Source: a virus
Taxonomy: Duplodnaviria > Heunggongvirae > Uroviricota > Caudoviricetes
DNA length: 36,472 nucleotides
Virus record (IMG/VR): IMGVR_UViG_2700989508_000025
Direction: 5' to 3' (one strand)
Positions 803 through 31,141 of the stretch are shown one piece after another (the first letter of the stretch is position 1; every line of letters starts with the position of its first letter). The notes beneath the pieces were generated by a model. The model was not told the DNA's origin and did not search any database. It saw only the letters and a program-made list of their open reading frames with translations. Made by a program: the position numbers and the translations under genes.

Positions 803-1117
803 GTGGTTGCTGATCATGAATATTTGTATTGGAAGATAATTGCAATGAGCGAAAGAGTGTTTGAGAAAGAACTATATTCTGAATGGGTTATACGCAATAG
901 TCTATATTGGATGACTCCGCTTACTCGATGGAAACTCCATGAAGACGTTTCCCACTGGATAATCTCTTTTGAAAACGATAATCCCAAATTCCTTTATGAA
1001 TTCGATAGGCTGCTTAATGATTACTCTTTGCGAGAAAAGCTACAGCATAAAACAGGGGCGTTGAGAGACTCTATTGTCCATAAAGTGCTTCGCAGTGTTG
1101 ATGAGAGGCTTTCATAA
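803..1117 (+). CDS. Small protein, first gene of the hxs-like operon (HxsD-like candidate)
   Basis: 104-aa ORF whose TAA stop overlaps the ATG of the next gene (1117). No recognisable motif; the assignment is by operon position only. Confidence 0.4.
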   Translation: MVADHEYLYWKIIAMSERVFEKELYSEWVIRNSLYWMTPLTRWKLHEDVSHWIISFENDNPKFLYEFDRLLNDYSLREKLQHKTGALRDSIVHKVLRSVDERLS

Positions 1118-2505
1118 TGGAATTGATGCCATTTAATTTTGACAGATTGCCTAATGGACAGGTGTTTATAAGCAACCTTGCAGGTTTTCATCATTTCATT
1201 GGTGAGCAAGACCTTATTGATCTTTCTGATGAGCGAATTAGTTCGGAGCAATCAAACGTGCTAGAAAGTAAGCTTTTCATAACCAGTGAAAGCTCATCTG
1301 CTATAACTCCCTATGCTTTAAGTTCTGCTTTTGCAAAACGATTGATGAATGAACTGGCTGTCAGGCCAATTTTCATGATTGTACCCACATTACGTTGTGA
1401 CCATACATGCAAGTATTGCCAGGTTAGTAGAGCTTCTGTTAATGCCTCAGGTTACGACCTAAATCCTGAGCTCATCCCCGATATTATTTCGGCTATTAAA
1501 AAACTATCAACGCCACCTTACAAAATAGAGATACAGGGTGGGGAGCCTCTCTTGCGGTTTGATTTAATTCAGAGCATCTATGATCAATGTGCTGAAACGC
1601 TGGGAAGAACCAATTTTGAGATGGTGGTGGCATCAAGTCTGTCCGTCTTGAATGAGGATATGATTGAATGGTCGAGAGACCGGAACATAACGTTCTCTGT
1701 GTCGCTTGATGGTGAGGAAGTTGTTCACAACAGTAATCGAATTCTTGGTCGTGGGCTTGCGTACAGTAGAACAGTGTCAGGGGTAGAGGCTATCAAACAC
1801 TCTTTAGGTGCTGGCCGCGTTGCAACGGTTACTACAGTTACTAAAGAGCTTATCAAACGTCCTGAATCGATTGTTCAGGCTCACTTGTCTCTTGGTCTCA
1901 AGGACATGTTTATCCGACCTGTTAGTCCCTATGGGTTTGCACAAAAAGCTTCTTTCACCTTTTCTATGGACGAATACTTCAGCTTCTATGCCTCGTTGAT
2001 AGATGAAATCCTTAAGATTAATAATGAAGGGATAAGGGTTGTGGAACATTCGGCCTCCATTCATCTGAAAAGGATCTTCAATCCCGGTTTTAGTGGTTAT
2101 GCGGATTTAAAGTCTCCAAGTGGAGTCGTGCTTAACAGTATTCTTTTCAATTATGACGGTCGAGTATATGGTAGCGATGAGAGCCGTATGTTGCAGAAGG
2201 TGAATCCTGAAACGGAGTTCAGTGCGGGTGAAGTTAAGACGCTATCATTTTCTGATAGTCCTTACTATAACGCAGTATTGAGTTCATCGTTCAATTTTGC
2301 TCTGCCAGGTTGTGATACATGTGCATATCAACCATTTTGTGGTTCAGATCCATGCCAGAACATAAGTGTACAGGGTGAGCCTGTCGGTGATAGGAGTCGT
2401 TCAACGTTTTGTCAATATCACAAGGGGATGTTCAGGTATCTGATGAACTGCATCTCAGAGGGTGGTTCGAAGGCTGAGATGCTAAAAGGATGGGCATATG
2501 TCTGA
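1117..2505 (+). CDS. Radical SAM enzyme with C-terminal SPASM-type Cys cluster (HxsB-like maturase candidate)
   Basis: 462 aa. CxxxCxxC motif in LRCDHTCKYCQ, Gly-rich IQGGEPLL, and a C-terminal Cys-rich segment PGCDTCAYQPFCGSDPCQ typical of SPASM domains. Confidence 0.75.
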   Translation: MELMPFNFDRLPNGQVFISNLAGFHHFIGEQDLIDLSDERISSEQSNVLESKLFITSESSSAITPYALSSAFAKRLMNELAVRPIFMIVPTLRCDHTCKYCQVSRASVNASGYDLNPELIPDIISAIKKLSTPPYKIEIQGGEPLLRFDLIQSIYDQCAETLGRTNFEMVVASSLSVLNEDMIEWSRDRNITFSVSLDGEEVVHNSNRILGRGLAYSRTVSGVEAIKHSLGAGRVATVTTVTKELIKRPESIVQAHLSLGLKDMFIRPVSPYGFAQKASFTFSMDEYFSFYASLIDEILKINNEGIRVVEHSASIHLKRIFNPGFSGYADLKSPSGVVLNSILFNYDGRVYGSDESRMLQKVNPETEFSAGEVKTLSFSDSPYYNAVLSSSFNFALPGCDTCAYQPFCGSDPCQNISVQGEPVGDRSRSTFCQYHKGMFRYLMNCISEGGSKAEMLKGWAYV

Positions 2506-3610
2506 GGTTATCAGGAACGATATCTTTCATTTTGCTTCTACAGAGAACGTGCCCACGGGGTTCTATCGGTTATGCAAACAAAAACCAGTGAACCCTTTAT
2601 TCTTTTTGCCCAATTTGCTAGTAGTTGCTGAAGGCAATAATGATGCCATTCCACCATGCTTTGATTTCTCTGTTATTAGCACTGAATTATTTGAGTCAAT
2701 TGAAGATGGAGATATTGGGATAATCAACAATGGCAATATGATACGCGTTATTCTGTCACGCAAAGCCAATCATAATACTGTCTTAGTTACGGAACGCTGC
2801 AATAACTTGTGTCTGTTTTGTTCGCAGCCACCAAAGAAAATAAATGATGACTGGCTACTTACCCAATCAGCTCTTGCTATAGCTTCATTTGGCTTGAACG
2901 GAGTTGTTGGGGTCAGCGGTGGTGAACCTTTGCTATATGGGGATGACTTCCTTCACTTCATTGATTTTATCATCGAGAATTCACCAGATACTGCTTTACA
3001 TGTTTTAACAAACGGACGCAAATTTGCTGATATCAACTTTACACAGGAAATGGCAAAGCGAAGCAAAAAGATCAAAATCACCTTTGGTATCCCGCTCTAC
3101 TCATCAAGACCACTTGTGCATGATCATCTGGTAGGGAGTGATGGCGCATTTAATGAAACGGTTAAAGGGTTAATCAATGCAGGAAACTTGGGGATTAATA
3201 TCGAACTTAGAGTTATTCCTACACTGGCTAACTATACCGAATTGGATGATATTGTAGAATTCGCTGGCCGTGTGTTCTCCAACATCAATCAGATTTCCCT
3301 TATGGGGTTGGAGCCTATCGGTTGGGCACGAAAAAACTGGTCCACCATCTTCATTGATCACAGTAGTTATAGTGAGAAAATAATCTCTGCCATAGACGCT
3401 GCATACAGGTCAGGCATACCTCTGACAATTTTTAATTATCCTTTGTGTTATCTTCCTGAAAGGGCTAGGGAGCTTGCTGTTCAGTCGATCTCTGATTGGA
3501 AAAATTACTATCCAAAAGAATGTGATGAATGTACTCAGAAGCCTTCCTGTGCTGGCTATTTCAGTTCCTCAAAAGGCCGTTTTCATCAATCACCGAGACC
3601 AATTTTATGA
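2498..3610 (+). CDS. Radical SAM enzyme (HxsC-like maturase candidate)
   Basis: 370 aa. CxxxCxxC in TERCNNLCLFCSQ, Gly-rich VSGGEPLL, and C-terminal Cys residues (CDECTQKPSCAGYF). Overlaps the upstream gene by 8 nt and the downstream gene by ATGA. Confidence 0.75.
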   Translation: MSEVIRNDIFHFASTENVPTGFYRLCKQKPVNPLFFLPNLLVVAEGNNDAIPPCFDFSVISTELFESIEDGDIGIINNGNMIRVILSRKANHNTVLVTERCNNLCLFCSQPPKKINDDWLLTQSALAIASFGLNGVVGVSGGEPLLYGDDFLHFIDFIIENSPDTALHVLTNGRKFADINFTQEMAKRSKKIKITFGIPLYSSRPLVHDHLVGSDGAFNETVKGLINAGNLGINIELRVIPTLANYTELDDIVEFAGRVFSNINQISLMGLEPIGWARKNWSTIFIDHSSYSEKIISAIDAAYRSGIPLTIFNYPLCYLPERARELAVQSISDWKNYYPKECDECTQKPSCAGYFSSSKGRFHQSPRPIL

Positions 3611-24889: not shown

Positions 24890-25935
24890 TGAGCAGAAAA
24901 AATAAAAAAGTGCGCATGAGTTCACGCATTGATCTCGCTGATGCGCTCAGGAAAGAATCATCGCTCAGTGCATTCACATTTGATGGTCCTTATCGCCTGA
25001 CCGGGCATGACCTGCTGGACAATATGTACTGTGCTGATAACGGGCGGTGGTATGAAACCCCGGTGGACTGGTACGGTCTGGCAAGAGCCGCCCGGCAAAC
25101 GTCCTGGCATCAGTCTGCGCTTTACTTTAAGCGCAATGTATTGCTCGGTTGCTACATCCCGCACCCGCTGCTTTCCCGGCAGGATTTCTCGGCGCTGGCG
25201 CTGGACTGGTTTGTGTTCGGTAACGCATTCCTTGAGCTTCGGAGCAATATGCTCGGCGAACCACTTAAATTACGGCACGCACTGGCGAAATACATGCGAC
25301 GCGGAAGCGATCTTGAATCATGGTGGTATGTGCAGGATGGCAAGGACGCGTTTCAGTTTCGCCCTGGCAAAGTGTGCCACCTGATGAATCCGGACATTAA
25401 CCAGGAAATTTACGGCATGCCGGAATATCTTGGCGCATTACTCTCGGCCAGCCTGTCTCATTCGGCGGACATGTTCAGAAAACTGTATTACGACAATGGA
25501 TCCCACGCCGGGTGCATCATCTACATCGGTGCAGCGCAGGTAAACCGCGAAAGCATGGACTCCCTGAAAGAAACGTTACAGGGTGCGCGTGGTGGTGGTG
25601 CGTTTAAAAACGTGCTCATCCATGCGCCCAACGGGGGCAAAGAGGGGGTGCAAATTTTGCCGTTCCAGCAGATCACCGCAAAGGATGAGTTCATGAATGT
25701 TAAGGCGGCATCCCGTGATGATGTGCTGGCTGCGCACCGCGTTCCGCCGCAACTGATGGGGGCGATGCCGGGCGAAAAAAGTGCGTTTGGTGATGTGGAG
25801 AAGGCTGCGCGGGTTTACGCAATTAACGAGCTGATGCCCGTCATGGAGGCCATGAAGCACATCAATGACTGGCTTGGCGAAGAGGTGATCCGCTTTAACC
25901 CTTACGCACTGTTAGACACCCAGCCCACATCCTGA
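24889..25935 (+). CDS. Q: Portal protein Q
   Basis: 348 aa (P2 Q is about 344), downstream of P with ATGA overlap; the last late gene before the presumed cos region. Confidence 0.85.
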   Translation: MSRKNKKVRMSSRIDLADALRKESSLSAFTFDGPYRLTGHDLLDNMYCADNGRWYETPVDWYGLARAARQTSWHQSALYFKRNVLLGCYIPHPLLSRQDFSALALDWFVFGNAFLELRSNMLGEPLKLRHALAKYMRRGSDLESWWYVQDGKDAFQFRPGKVCHLMNPDINQEIYGMPEYLGALLSASLSHSADMFRKLYYDNGSHAGCIIYIGAAQVNRESMDSLKETLQGARGGGAFKNVLIHAPNGGKEGVQILPFQQITAKDEFMNVKAASRDDVLAAHRVPPQLMGAMPGEKSAFGDVEKAARVYAINELMPVMEAMKHINDWLGEEVIRFNPYALLDTQPTS

Positions 25936-26358
25936 CGCGCTTCGCTTGTCTGCTGCTTCGCCGGGGCATAAAAAATTTATGCCCCGACTCTCCAGCTCCT
26001 GTATCAGTCAGATAATTTCACGACGCCTTCCAGTTTATCGCCACCATCGACGGTCAGACTCTTACGCAATCCCACCGCGTTGACTGTATGTTCTCGCCGC
26101 CTCAGTGCGATTTTGACGGCCTTACCTTTCACCCCATCAAATCAAAAGCCCTCACGCCTTTTTCACGCTCAGCGTGAGAAATACAGCCATTCTGTTGTGT
26201 CGCTGCGACATCGTTCAGGGAATGCTATTTACCCCCTGAAACGCGGGCTGTTCCCCCGTCACCTGCGCGCAGAAAAAGCGCGTTTTTTTGTGCACGCACG
26301 GATCCTTGACGGATCCAGCCGCAACGCGGGCCGGAAGGGCAAAAAGTCGTTCAAAAAA

Positions 26359-26823: not shown

Positions 26824-26921
26824 GCTTTTTTTCCTTTTTCTCTGTCAATGTGTTGCATTTTGTCCCCCTTGTTTATGTTCCCGGATTAAAGTCATCAGGG
26901 CGGATGCGCCCTGATGTTGTG

Positions 26922-27233
26922 TTATTCGGGAAATAATGCCCGGATATTTCCGGCCATCTGACTGGTTATCTGTGCGGTTGATACTGGCTGTGACGCGGGG
27001 CATTCTGTCCTGGTTTGTGTCACTGATAACGCCTCATCGTCAGCCCATGCAGCCAGTCGGTAAGCCTCTGCTGGATTCATTTTCAGAAGTGCCAGCCCGG
27101 CCAGAAAAGCCACGCGTTGGCCGCTTTTGCGGGCTTCTGGTGTAAGGCTGTCCAGCCAGGCGCATGCTTCGCTTTCGTTCTTGACGGCCGCAGGCTTCAG
27201 ATAGAAACTTATCCGTCTGGTTGGTGTCGTCAT
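26922..27233 (-). CDS. parR: ParR-like centromere-binding adaptor (plasmid partition / StbB-like)
   Basis: Track ORF trimmed to MTTPTRRISFYLKPAAVKNESEACAWLDSL...AFLAGLALLK, which resembles the N-terminal ribbon-helix-helix region of R1 ParR (RRTIAFKLNP...ALTAGLALYR) from memory. Lies immediately downstream of parM. Confidence 0.6.
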   Translation of the reverse strand: MTTPTRRISFYLKPAAVKNESEACAWLDSLTPEARKSGQRVAFLAGLALLKMNPAEAYRLAAWADDEALSVTQTRTECPASQPVSTAQITSQMAGNIRALFPE

Positions 27234-27237
27234 TGGT

Positions 27238-28197
27238 TTACTCCTTGTCCATTGCGTACAGCCCATTAACCAGAGCAAACTGTGGCACCCCGTCCGCGAT
27301 GAAAGTCGCATTAACTCCGCAGGCTTCGCGGATAGCGGGTGCCACAATCTCCGCCCCTCCACCGACAACCATCACCCGCCCGTAACCCGAAAAAACCGCC
27401 AGCGCGCGGATCACGCGTTGTTTCAGTGTTTCTTCCTTTTCACGAATAACCGCCATCAGGCTGGCGTAATGCGCGTCATTGTGGATGTGCTGGCGCAGCC
27501 AGGCTTCATCATGGCGATGTTCGATAATGGTATTGGCGATGTGGTGACTGGTGCGCATACCGTTAGTGGCCATCACCGCCAGTACGGCATCGGCCATCAG
27601 AGAAACGCCTACGTGTGGATCGCAAAACACCTGGCTGATACCTGCCAGGTGCCCCTGAACCTTTGCCACATCCAGCGTGGTTCCGCCCAAATCCACAATC
27701 AGCAGGGATTCAAACGGACTCATGTCAGCCAGTGCCTTAAAGCCAGCCGGAATGGATTCAGGCATAACCCGCACGTTACGGATAGTGAATGCTTCGCCGT
27801 TCTGGTACTCCACCGGGCGCATAACGTTCGCTTTTTTGCGGTTGATGTTGGCCATGTCCGGCTGTGCGTTTGTGTCGAAATACTCGCTCAGTGGCAGGGT
27901 GACAACCACATCCACCTCCTGTGGTGTGATGCCTGATTTGACCAGCGCGTGATGAATGGCAATGACATTCACATCGCTGTATTGGTATTGCGTGTCGGTC
28001 GTCTGGACAAAGCGATCGCTGACCGGATCAAAACCATAGCGCACGCCATCAAGCATGTAGTTCGCGGGCTGCGTGCCACCGAACGGCGCAGACCATTCCG
28101 ACTTGAAGCTGTTCGGGCTGATGGCGTTGCGGCGTTCGCCGTTCTCAGTCCATGCCAGCTTGATGTTGGTGGAGCCGTCGTCGATACAAATTTTCAT
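27238..28197 (-). CDS. parM: ParM/StbA-family actin-like segregation ATPase
   Basis: 319 aa. Strong resemblance to R1 ParM throughout (MKICIDDGSTNIKLAW, SDVNVIAIHHAL, VMPESIPAG, DLGGTTLD, VVGGGAE). SD AAGGAAAAG sits upstream of the ATG at 28197. Confidence 0.85.
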   Translation of the reverse strand: MKICIDDGSTNIKLAWTENGERRNAISPNSFKSEWSAPFGGTQPANYMLDGVRYGFDPVSDRFVQTTDTQYQYSDVNVIAIHHALVKSGITPQEVDVVVTLPLSEYFDTNAQPDMANINRKKANVMRPVEYQNGEAFTIRNVRVMPESIPAGFKALADMSPFESLLIVDLGGTTLDVAKVQGHLAGISQVFCDPHVGVSLMADAVLAVMATNGMRTSHHIANTIIEHRHDEAWLRQHIHNDAHYASLMAVIREKEETLKQRVIRALAVFSGYGRVMVVGGGAEIVAPAIREACGVNATFIADGVPQFALVNGLYAMDKE

Positions 28198-28228
28198 GTC
28201 GCTTTTCCTTATGTTGATTAATTAATCG

Positions 28229-28338
28229 TTTACGGGATTCTGAAATCCCGTTTTTGCCTGTTTTGTGCGCGCTTCATATATCGCTGCGCGTTTTTTGCTC
28301 ATTTACGGGATTCGTGAGTCCCGTTTCTGTCTGTTTTT
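28229..28338. repeat. Two copies of a ~37-bp direct repeat, each containing a hairpin followed by a T-rich tract, upstream of parM and overlapping the 3' end of gene A
   Basis: Read directly: copy 1 at 28229-28264 (tttacgggattctgaaatcccgtttttgcctgtttt), copy 2 at 28302-28338 (tttacgggattcgtgagtcccgtttctgtctgtttttt), 73 bp apart. Confidence 0.7.
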
Positions 28339-31141
28339 TGTTTCCACTGGTCAGGCCACCCCGCAGCAGGTCTGCTTTGCGGCTGGCGCGTTCAGTGGTT
28401 TCACTGATTCTCTGTGCGTGCTCTGCGTCGCGGATGGCGCGCAGCATGTCAGAAAGCACGGTAACGGGTGTTTTCATGGTGTTCTGGTCCTGCTGAAGTG
28501 TGGATGCCAGGCGTGCGGCGGCTTCAGGGTCTGATGCCCCCAGCTGTGTCAGATAGCTGGCGACCGGGTTATGGCGGATCTCCGTGCTGCTTACGCCATG
28601 ATTACGGCTCAGGCGCTGCCAGAGCTGCGTGATTCGGCTGTCCGGGCGGGTATCCGGTTTGCGTACAATTTCAAATCCCTGCGGTGCAATGATGCTGCCG
28701 TCAACGTACAGACTGCCGCCCCGTAACAGGTGCTGCATCTGTTGTTCACCGATATGCAGGCCGAGAGATTCAGCAGACTCCCGCCATTCTTTAGCGAGTA
28801 ATTCGTGGTTATCAGGCAAAGGCCGCTGCTGTTTGCGGCTCTGTGTCCAGCTCTGCATTTCATCACTGCTGTTTTTTGCCTGTTTGTCACGAAGCGAACG
28901 CATCAGCGCCCGGCGTTCGTGCCGTTTCAGTGAGCGCATCCATTCATCCACATCAACGCCGTCAGGGAGCTGCGGCCACGGTGCTGGCCGTTCTTCCGGC
29001 TGTTTTGTCCCGTTGTTGTCCGTTTCCTGTACACGGGGACAGTTATTGCCACGAGTCCAAGGGGCGGCAGGGCCGCCCTGAAGGTCAAAACCATTTTCGC
29101 GGGAGCTGTCTTCCGCTTCCGGTTTGCGTCTTACCAGCTTCCAGTTATCCGGATGCGTGCATACGCGGGAAGACTCCCCGATGAGCGGCGACCAGATCCC
29201 GTAAATCTGTACACTCTGCTCACCGTAATCGTTCAGCTCATTTGCGAGGTCGTAGGCGGTGCGAATCAGGTAGTCCTTGCGTGGAACAAGCACGCCACCC
29301 TGTTTTTCAATGTAGGTGGCAAAACACCCGGCATCGGCGGCAGCGAGTACCGCATCCATTGCATCATCTTTCAGCCGTTGCGGGCCTTCCGGATTGCGTG
29401 CCATCTGGCTGGCAAGGCGGCGCAGTTCACGCCACACCTGACGGGAGGGGATGCCAAAGAACTGGAACTGACGGACCCGGTGAAGGCGCGCCCAGCCGAT
29501 GGCGCGCTCCACGCTCTCGGCCATTGATTTTCCGGTTTCGTGGTCAACGCGTGGCTTGCCCGTTTTCGGGTCGATGCCATCCACGGCGCGGCTGTCCAGG
29601 TTCTTTCCGATGTAGGTGGCGATGTAGCTGGTTGGTGTGCCTTTTGAGCCGTCGACATACTCCGCCTTAAAACGCGGAGTTATGTCATCGCCCAGCTCGT
29701 GGCGGTCCTCCTGAATGGCAATATCGCAGACGTGGGACACGATGGTTTCAATCTCGTCCGGATGTGCAAAGACCATCATATGCCAGTGCACAGTGCCGTC
29801 ATGGTGAGGCTCCACCGTGCGGATGCCATACCAGCGCAGGCCGTCGCGGTTCAGTTTTTTGCGGACCGCCGCAAAAAACGTGTTAACCAGGTAATCGCTG
29901 GAGTCGCGCATGGTGGCCCCGTTCCATTTGGGGTTCGGATGACCGTTCTCCGTTGTTGCGTGGTATTTTGACGGGCAGGTGACGGTCAGAAACACCGCTC
30001 TGTCGCCACGGGCTTCGGCCAGAAGTTCCAGTCCCTTCATGGTGGCCATCATTTCTGCCTTACGGTGAACCGGGTTACTTACTCCCGCGTAATACACCGT
30101 CTCGAGATCAATCGTGAATCCGTCTTCATTTTCCAGCATGAAACTTTTCAGGAAATCGCGTGTTTTCTCGCGCTGTGCGCGAAACTCGCTTAACGCGTCC
30201 TGGCTCAGATAGGGGGATGTTTTTCTGGAAACCAGACAGGCGGCGCGGAGTTGTTCTTCCCGCCACTCACAACGTAACAGCCACAGTTTGCGTTTCCACC
30301 ATTCCGCACAGGTCAGGCGAAGGATTGCGCCCGGCAGCAGCTCCGTGTCCGGTTCGTTCCTCCGGTCTTTGTCTGTTGTCAGTGCGTCATAATGTGGAGG
30401 CATGGCGTGCAGGTGTAACGCCATGCGGGCCAGCATCTGATACGCCTTCAGCGTTACATCCATGGTCAGCTCGCCATCAGTCGCGCCAAAGCCATCGCAG
30501 AGTTTTTCGAAGGTGCTGCTGAACATCGCCGCTGTCATGGTGGCCAGCGTCTGTATCTGGTGTTTGTTGAGCTGCGGCAGGTAAAGCAAATCATCCAGGC
30601 GTTCGCGTCCGGCAAGGGAGCGATAACCCGGTGTCAGCCAGCGGTGGTCGGTGCGGTCCAGACGTTCGAATATTTTGCGCAGGGTTCCGCACGCGTAGCG
30701 TTCAGCCTGCCAGCTCTTTTTGCCTTTCTGGCGATCGGCTTCCTGTTTTTTGCGCAGGAAAGAGAGGTGGCGGCTCAGAGGTTCACGCAGATAAACGGGA
30801 AGCACCTTCAGTGTGGCAAAAGCACGGGCCACCGAGTCTTGTTCTGTTGCCTGACGCTTGCTGATGATGCTTTGTGCCAGCTTTTCACGCTGTCCGGCTT
30901 CCTCAAGGGATGCCATGAGTTTTTTACCCACGGTGGATTGTGCGAAAAAGGCTTCCTCCTTCGCTTCCTGTTCTTCCAGAGCCTTTTTGTCTGCCTCAAG
31001 GTAGTAACGGATGGCGCGTTGCAGGTCGGTTTCAGTTTCCTGCCTGTGCTCCGTAAATCTGGCCGGATCAATGGCTGGCCGTGGTTCATTCCAGCTCCAT
31101 GTAAACTCATTCATGGCTGGTATCCCGTCACGCGCTGCCAC
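28274..31141 (-). CDS. A: Replication initiation endonuclease A (rolling-circle, HUH family)
   Basis: 955 aa. HUH motif in VEPHHDGTVHWHMMVF and active-site Tyr motif TSYIATYIGKN, as in P2 gpA. Alternative start at ATG 31114 (MNEFTWSW), coupled to the upstream ORF's stop. Longer than P2 A (about 760 aa). Confidence 0.85.
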   Translation of the reverse strand: MAARDGIPAMNEFTWSWNEPRPAIDPARFTEHRQETETDLQRAIRYYLEADKKALEEQEAKEEAFFAQSTVGKKLMASLEEAGQREKLAQSIISKRQATEQDSVARAFATLKVLPVYLREPLSRHLSFLRKKQEADRQKGKKSWQAERYACGTLRKIFERLDRTDHRWLTPGYRSLAGRERLDDLLYLPQLNKHQIQTLATMTAAMFSSTFEKLCDGFGATDGELTMDVTLKAYQMLARMALHLHAMPPHYDALTTDKDRRNEPDTELLPGAILRLTCAEWWKRKLWLLRCEWREEQLRAACLVSRKTSPYLSQDALSEFRAQREKTRDFLKSFMLENEDGFTIDLETVYYAGVSNPVHRKAEMMATMKGLELLAEARGDRAVFLTVTCPSKYHATTENGHPNPKWNGATMRDSSDYLVNTFFAAVRKKLNRDGLRWYGIRTVEPHHDGTVHWHMMVFAHPDEIETIVSHVCDIAIQEDRHELGDDITPRFKAEYVDGSKGTPTSYIATYIGKNLDSRAVDGIDPKTGKPRVDHETGKSMAESVERAIGWARLHRVRQFQFFGIPSRQVWRELRRLASQMARNPEGPQRLKDDAMDAVLAAADAGCFATYIEKQGGVLVPRKDYLIRTAYDLANELNDYGEQSVQIYGIWSPLIGESSRVCTHPDNWKLVRRKPEAEDSSRENGFDLQGGPAAPWTRGNNCPRVQETDNNGTKQPEERPAPWPQLPDGVDVDEWMRSLKRHERRALMRSLRDKQAKNSSDEMQSWTQSRKQQRPLPDNHELLAKEWRESAESLGLHIGEQQMQHLLRGGSLYVDGSIIAPQGFEIVRKPDTRPDSRITQLWQRLSRNHGVSSTEIRHNPVASYLTQLGASDPEAAARLASTLQQDQNTMKTPVTVLSDMLRAIRDAEHAQRISETTERASRKADLLRGGLTSGNKKQTETGLTNPVNEQKTRSDI

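Follow-up and report, generated by a model that had tools for sequence, protein, structure and literature searches.

Two short repeats lying immediately upstream of the partition gene parM in a P88-like prophage probably constitute a split, two-dyad binding site for the adaptor protein ParR, in the manner of the plasmid locus parC, and would thus serve as the centromere and operator of the parMR module. We favor this reading because the position and spacing of the dyads are conserved in relatives whose ParM is just 62% identical, and because the dyads travel with parMR and are absent where parMR is absent. Further support comes from the genes themselves: a complete parM-parR pair lies directly downstream, in keeping with the known place of parC upstream of parM. 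A parC-like centromere or operator was among the options raised in a preliminary description of this region, alongside an insertion scar and an element of the replication origin, and it is the option that the comparative evidence supports best. What is known of type II partition comes almost wholly from plasmids, among them R1, pB171, and pSK41; the complete parM-parR pair studied here resides in an integrating P2-like phage. We found no paper on the cis site or on any function of P88-type parMR, and a comparison of phiSM and P88 lists the P88-type parMR gene merely as a putative fitness factor (PMC6456863).

The window—the whole 36,472-nucleotide stretch of DNA analyzed, IMG/VR record IMGVR_UViG_2700989508_000025—is a P88-like (Xuanwuvirus) P2-type prophage, with segment identities of 95–98% to Escherichia phage P88 and 13 other Xuanwuvirus records. 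The gene order A, parM, parR is common to P88 and all 13 of the other records compared, and every gene from parR through A lies on the minus strand. Gene A (28274–31096, minus strand), a P2-type replication endonuclease of 940 residues by the P88 annotation, was identified by its Pfam Phage_GPA domain (E = 1.5e-129) and by alignment to P2 A; its stop codon occupies 28276–28274, which leaves a gap of 76 bp before parM. The parM gene itself (27238–28197, minus strand) encodes an actin-like segregation ATPase of 319 residues (Pfam StbA_N, E = 1.8e-82; ParM C-terminal domain, E = 3e-68), and parR (26922–27233, minus strand) encodes a ribbon-helix-helix adaptor of 103 residues (Pfam Plasmid_stab_B, E = 1.7e-24). 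Directly after parR stands a strong terminator-like hairpin, CATCAGGGCGGATGCGCCCTGATG, at 26893–26916. Another strong hairpin of this kind, GCGCGCAGAAAAAGCGCGT followed by a T-run, lies at 26265–26283 near the presumed cos region and, given the A/T runs on both of its sides, is possibly bidirectional.

The repeats comprise two direct copies of 42 nt on the minus strand, one proximal to parM (28226–28267) and one distal (28299–28340), which were returned by a direct-repeat search. They start 73 bp apart, as first described, but agree at 34 of 42 positions, so that the identity originally put at about 85% is revised to 81%. Within each copy is a palindrome of 20 nt whose 8-pair stem encloses a loop of 4 nt: ACGGGATTCTGAAATCCCGT at 28232–28251 in the proximal copy and, with one G-T pair, ACGGGATTCGTGAGTCCCGT at 28305–28324 in the distal copy. 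Dyad cores of the form GGG-N10-CCC occupy 28234–28249 and 28307–28322, respectively. The palindrome followed by a T-rich tract on the plus strand, which had been reported for each copy, was recovered in both, and a terminator-like scan flags the two alike; on the parM-sense strand, an A-tract precedes the proximal repeat. Similarity between the copies is limited to the 42-nt cores and does not extend over whole 73-bp units. A 25-nt degenerate pattern, searched with up to three mismatches, matches only these two copies in the 36.5-kb window, and 100 dinucleotide-preserving shuffles yielded no match. The T-rich tail of the repeat has a third, partial counterpart, GTTTTTTGCCTGTTTG, within A at 28871–28886; no palindrome adjoins it, and it is probably due to chance.

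Both copies fall within the 143 bp (28198–28340) upstream of the parM start. The proximal copy sits in the A-parM gap, where 34 bp separate the end of its palindrome, and 28 bp the end of the 42-nt repeat, from the parM ATG at 28197. The distal copy overlaps codons −22 to −8 of A, which bears out its earlier placement inside the 3′ end of that reading frame: it is contained in the last 22 codons, which close with KKQTETGLTNPVNEQKTRSDI and the stop, and the distal repeat, together with the spacer that follows it, supplies the final 20 or so codons of A. This spacer, 31 bp in length (28268–28298, minus strand), contains the A stop as well as a GC-rich dyad of its own, CGCGC-N13-GCGCG, enclosing GATATAT. 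The spacer varies in sequence from genus to genus, and some relatives have CCATAAAACATGAAGTGCGC in place of this block. A ATTAATCAA motif (28214–28222, minus strand), whose ATTAAT recurs in the other genera treated below, separates the proximal dyad from the ribosome-binding site (AAGGA, 28210–28206) and may be a candidate −10 element. In what was first termed the parM promoter region, consensus scans of the parM strand detected no sigma-70 promoter, whether in the window itself or in the loci of Hafnia, Plesiomonas, and Serratia introduced below. Since no such promoter was found near the dyads in any lineage, the operator part of our reading is unsupported; parMR may be cotranscribed with, or read through from, the early operon. 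AA dinucleotides between −150 and −20 relative to parM recur with a 10.5-bp period that was exceeded by none of 1000 shuffles, and R1-type parC has the same period, which favors the centromere reading. In the Hafnia and Plesiomonas loci, the phasing of A-tracts is not significant. The direct-repeat search detected no tandem array of iterons at a spacing of about one helical turn, only the two dyad-symmetric sites 73 bp apart.

The proteins encoded downstream leave little doubt as to the kind of module involved. ParM matches the R1 ParM structure 1MWK over its full length (E = 2.8e-92), with an identity of ∼46–47% to R1 ParM, and is 40–52% identical to thousands of plasmid ParMs. Across 69 unique relatives, third-codon positions of parM vary ∼2.5 times as much as the gene average, an excess consistent with purifying selection. 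ParR is less readily placed: the window protein alone returned no match when searched against the PDB with phmmer, and a profile of its family matches the pB171 adaptor StbB/ParR (2JD3) over the full length (E = 5.6e-16). The N-terminal strand TRRISFYLKP is retained and the C-terminal tail ends in NIRALFPE, the conserved N..LFPE element of which aligns with the end of R1 ParR. A proposal that the 103-residue protein is a truncated ParR devoid of its ParM-binding tail was rejected, as the N..LFPE tail could be aligned and just the linker is short. The gene-level features of a type II (ParMRC) locus are thus present, namely an actin-like ATPase and, directly downstream of parM, a ParR with a C-terminal tail. 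By these similarities, the adaptor is a bona fide ParR and the two genes are a genuine type II partition pair.

Variation within ParR bears on the identity of its site. The Escherichia proteins are mosaics in which the N-terminal ∼50 residues, the DNA-binding half, are near-identical and the C-terminal half is swapped, with the break near 27179. The swapped alleles, 52–58% identical overall, carry the tail KKNIQAFFPE or KKNIQTLFPE in place of NIRALFPE, and one of them is paired with a 98%-identical ParM and with unchanged dyads. An initial expectation that alleles of 52–58% identity would be accompanied by different sites was discarded, the N-terminal halves being identical and the sites unchanged. 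That the DNA-binding half is near-invariant while C-terminal halves swap and the dyads stay as they are counts in favor of the dyads being ParR sites.

Close relatives were represented by 80 IMG/VR loci and three genomes with parM 97–100% identical to that of the window. The preliminary description had observed that a centromere role would be undermined were the repeat lacking from such relatives; both copies are kept in nearly all 83 loci, and a single fused copy occurs in one. This exception, L018 (IMG/VR 2657245439_000011), has an exact 73-bp deletion that fuses the two copies upstream of parM, with the result that its gene A ends with TGFKNPVTD in the proximal copy, five codons past the palindrome. 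Within this clade, the palindromes were not conserved above their flanks among 69 unique E. coli-type sequences, a comparison rendered uninformative by a divergence of only 1–7%. Wider sampling is provided by complete E. coli genomes: the A-parM junction is present in 1321 of 5426 (∼24%), including O157:H7, O26:H11, and ST131 strains. At least 1299 of these 1321 cover at least 80% of the query, such that the two-copy state is kept, which supports the centromere reading in E. coli.

The cis site is inherited with parMR and is absent without it, as several junctions illustrate. L053 carries a divergent 3′ part of A: its sequence ceases to match the window at 28860 and matches it again from 28338, right at the outer boundary of the distal copy. 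The E. coli cS51a chromosome (L150), one of the genomes matching the junction query in part, presents the converse case, as it has the same A gene and neither parMR nor the repeats; here, homology to the window breaks at ∼28395, and parMR and the repeats are replaced, at 887–3414 of the locus, by three hypothetical genes (459, 112, and 269 residues) encoded on the other strand in the interval from portal to A. The prophage is P88-like in other respects, and the replacement genes stand where P2 has its cargo hot spot; a PADLOC search of the three returned no match. Seventy other P2-like phages in the phage collection share only ∼29009–29358 of the window, a segment of A around the candidate origin, and the repeats occur in none of them. 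Presence of the repeat in phages lacking parMR, which had been named at the outset as evidence against an insertion scar, was accordingly not found in either L150 or this collection. A different gene upstream of the dyads in Hafnia, described below, belongs to the same body of evidence. On these comparisons, the repeats are part of the parMR module, and A closes in module DNA, its ends being different in L150, L018, and L053.

More distant ParM relatives, 54–62% identical, are all found in P2-like prophages, between A and portal, each followed by a ParR gene. Such related parMR prophages occur in at least five other genera, a count made up of Hafnia, Plesiomonas, Serratia, Enterobacter, and one IMG/VR contig. 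The Hafnia and Plesiomonas loci, with ParM 62% identical to that of the window, are the most instructive, as the DNA surrounding the site has diverged almost wholly and yet exactly two GGG-N10-CCC dyads lie upstream of parM, against a background density of just 0.1–0.5 such motifs per kb in these loci. Their positions relative to parM are closely matched: distal −124 and proximal −51 in the window (−51 or −52 in E. coli), −128 and −55 in Hafnia, and −131 and −59 in Plesiomonas, giving spacings of 73, 73, and 72 bp, respectively. A four-way alignment has GGGA..CCC, CGGG..CCC, ATTAAT, and ATG as its contiguous invariant blocks, the other invariant columns being scattered single bases; of these blocks, ATTAAT stands just before the ribosome-binding site in all three genera (E. 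coli, Hafnia, and Plesiomonas). The Plesiomonas distal dyad overlaps the last codons of A, as it does in the window. The gene found upstream in Hafnia is an unrelated ORF of 167 residues that reads through both dyads; that it might be a split-off C terminus of A was considered and rejected, there being no significant similarity. The two copies at a locus resemble one another more closely than they do their orthologs (76% versus at most 55% in E. coli), and over the inner 10 nt in Plesiomonas the copies are 80% alike versus at most 50% to orthologs. Such a pattern would be expected of sites that track a single binding protein.

A further clade, represented by Serratia and Enterobacter, carries a variant ParR N-terminal strand (NRKISFYLKP) and a different architecture in the same place, with inverted arms of 19–20 nt set 28 nt apart. 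The arms, GGGAACGAAATAGAAAAAT and ATTTTTCTATTTCGTTCCC, span approximately −120 to −50 of parM (L096, L099, L097, L103, and L104) and form a putative centromere; in L104, the region extends to a near-palindrome of 66 nt. The sequence ACAGGCAAAAACGGGA is common to this region and to the E. coli proximal copy. Efforts to add lineages met with limited success. A scan of contigs yielded only three loci, all 97–99% identical, and ParMs of the Hafnia and Plesiomonas types are essentially absent from IMG/VR. Two pattern scans for the proximal dyad together with ATTAATCAA returned 45 loci, only two of which encode ParM, both P88-like, and the rest are chance matches.

Comparison with characterized systems clarifies what is familiar about the site and what is not. 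Known parC sites are loci of repeats that sit directly upstream of parM, in one continuous stretch or in two parts on either side of the promoter, to which ParR dimers bind and from which they present their C-terminal tails to ParM (PMC5016525); that of R1 is described as ten 11-bp direct iterons (Dam & Gerdes 1994, as cited in PMC5016525). The window resembles R1 and NR1 in having a split, repeat-bearing cis site immediately upstream of parM-parR, in the 10.5-bp A-tract phase, in a ParR of the same Pfam family with an N-terminal strand and a C-terminal tail, and in a ParM that is a full-length homolog of R1 ParM; the closest solved relative of its adaptor is pB171 ParR (StbB, 2JD3). The pSK41 centromere is a continuous repeat array. 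In R1-type plasmids, two clusters of 11-bp direct iterons flank a promoter that is recognizable by eye rather than by scan, whereas the window has two dyad-symmetric sites with no recognizable promoter between them, and the distal site is inside the coding end of another gene. It is also much smaller than the characterized centromeres of this ParR family, with two dyads (four half-sites) as against the ten direct iterons of R1. The repeats may be best described as an uncharacterized variant of the ParMRC-type cis site, one that has the gene-level hallmarks of these loci and lacks the direct iteron array.

The pOXA-48-type IncL plasmids offer a comparison of a different sort. These have two repeat clusters upstream of a parM 52% identical to that of the window, also with 73 bp from start to start, although the clusters (L083, 1356–1478) consist of 10-bp T-rich direct CTRTATTTTT iterons rather than GC-cored dyads and flank a clear TTTACA-17-TAATAAT promoter. 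The spacing common to these iterons and the phage dyads may reflect a common geometry of the ParR complex. That repeats also precede parM in the R1-type and pOXA-48-type plasmids and in the Serratia/Enterobacter clade lends the centromere reading further weight. Among integrating elements, the closest functional analogs would appear to be srpMRC of the SXT/R391 ICEs and AlpAC/alpS of the Corynebacterium prophage CGP3. The former is likewise a type II partition module in a normally integrated element, and its srpC site upstream of srpM comprises four short direct and inverted repeats in two pairs, which bind the adaptor, with the locus stabilizing a test plasmid; the host element, however, is an ICE and not a phage, SrpR has no recognizable similarity to ParR, and the 13-bp repeats differ in sequence (PMC4489591). 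In CGP3, an actin-like filament and an adaptor that binds promoter-region repeats upstream of the operon have been proposed to move replicating phage DNA after induction, but the actin-like protein and adaptor are unrelated to those studied here, and alpS is a 7-nt TTAAnnG element repeated many times (PMC5539076).

How might so small a site function? We envisage that each 16-bp dyad, (C)GGG-N10-CCC(G), which in the E. coli phages is the core of a 20-bp palindrome, would be bound by ParR. At 72–73 bp apart, or approximately seven helical turns, the two dyads would present themselves on the same face of the DNA, and in the E. coli phages their placement within phased A-tracts could help the DNA to wrap or loop. 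Bound ParR could then bridge or wrap the ∼115-bp segment into one complex, from which the conserved ParR C-terminal tails would capture ParM filaments, thereby conferring the centromere activity that we predict. ParR bound to the proximal dyad, which ATTAAT and the ribosome-binding site closely follow, would in addition dampen parMR expression, a form of autoregulation that we likewise infer.

The hairpin-forming capacity of the repeats invites the suggestion that they act as RNA, either as tandem plus-strand intrinsic terminators, antisense to A and parM, or as stabilizing or processing hairpins in the sense A-parM transcript. Both copies do satisfy the terminator pattern on the plus strand—an 8-pair stem, a 4-nt loop, and a T-rich tail—with fold energies of approximately −9 to −11 kcal/mol on either strand, the commonest proximal-copy changes among E. 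coli variants (A1 to G and C18 to T) still permit G-U pairs on the sense strand, and in the Serratia clade terminator-like hairpins occur on the antisense strand upstream of parM. Even so, an RNA role strikes us as improbable. No plus-strand transcription unit ends at the repeats, the nearest genes on that strand (terminase and portal) ending at 25935 with a terminator-like site of their own at 26265–26283. The Hafnia and Plesiomonas sites keep just the outer GGG/CCC, leaving stems of 3–4 pairs with 10-nt loops at −3 to −8 kcal/mol, no T-run, and no terminator-like call; among the 69 unique E. coli-clade sequences there are no compensatory double changes, and several variants break a pair; and an Rfam scan returned no match. 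Conservation of a dyad across genera does, on the other hand, leave the identity of its binder unspecified, and the comparative data show just a linkage to the parMR module, so that the sites might be occupied not by ParR but by a different protein, for example a regulator of parMR expression or of module exchange that phage or host encodes. We consider this no more probable than a role in RNA, as no DNA-binding protein except ParR is found with the sites in every case, other neighbors differing between lineages, and the clade with the other ParR N-terminal strand has the other repeat architecture. The P2 Ogr/Delta late-promoter element is TGT-N12-ACA, which the dyad, by inspection, does not resemble.

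The history of the locus raises the prospect that the repeats are a functionless by-product of the joining of parMR to the end of A, left by local duplication or recombination at a cargo hot spot. Mosaic breakpoints indeed fall at or near the distal copy, at 28338 in L053 and ∼28395 in L150, and the end of A is plastic, one variant having lost 73 bp by recombination between the copies. An insertion scar, as originally proposed, holds only in the weak sense that the last codons of A are module DNA, and the proposal fares poorly in other respects: the two copies are found together on one side of parMR with none past parR, such that the insert is not flanked; similarity is confined to the 42-nt cores rather than the 73-bp units; and the two-site layout is old, with a paired spacing of 72–73 bp that persists at 62% ParM identity amid randomized flanks, as would be unexpected of neutral DNA. 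A scar without function is therefore unlikely in our estimation. Less credible still, to the point of being very nearly discounted, is that the hairpins serve A in rolling-circle replication, for instance as an accessory site of the origin or a single-strand origin. Hairpins are common in rolling-circle origins, and the P2 origin lies inside A according to its rep_origin annotation; yet a search for the P2 nick site at the repeats, with up to three mismatches, gave no match, the prophage L150 has the same A gene and no repeats, the hairpin is not conserved in other genera, and a homolog of the nick site is found ∼700 bp away.

This homolog, whose existence counts against the earlier suggestion of a replication-origin element at the repeats, is gccgccccttggactcgtggcaataactgt at 29037–29066 (minus strand). 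It encodes AAPWTRGNNC and aligns with the P2 sequence GCCGCGCCTCGGAGTCCTGTCAATAACTGT; it was located only through alignment of the A proteins, starting from the P2 rep_origin annotation at 29892, after a sequence search allowing up to three mismatches had found nothing. We regard 29037–29066 as a candidate nick site of the replication origin. Just downstream of it, the homology that P2-like A genes share comes to an end in DNA and protein alike, and the ∼250 codons of A that follow are lineage specific.

Should the dyads prove to be a ParR-binding centromere, several implications would follow. The need for one is not obvious in an element that is normally integrated, 1464 of the 1466 junction locations in E. 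coli being chromosomal. It is possible, although we advance this tentatively and hold it to be less probable than not, that P88-like prophages carry a working and unusually small ParMRC, with a two-dyad centromere fused to the end of the replication gene, that is used to move or space rolling-circle-replicated genomes after induction, or to hold the excised or not-yet-integrated circle, rather than for inheritance in the style of a plasmid. Were this so, it would be the P2-family counterpart of CGP3 AlpAC and SXT srpMRC, and four half-sites would suffice as an attachment point between ParR and ParM. As a centromere, the ∼115-bp segment would offer a compact test object for the minimum number of ParR sites capable of capturing ParM filaments, and could reveal the use to which a normally integrating phage puts an actin-like segregation machine. 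The annotation of these prophages is sharpened as well: the end of A is read from putative centromere DNA, and a candidate origin is placed ∼700 bp upstream.

Two further occurrences of the locus are of note. A 97%-identical P88-type parM locus is present in an assembly labeled Vagococcus sp. WN89Y (L089), a Firmicute, and is probably contamination. A 99%-identical copy lies on a 272-kb plasmid of Salmonella enterica (NZ_CP110658.1), indicating that a P88-type prophage can sit in plasmids.
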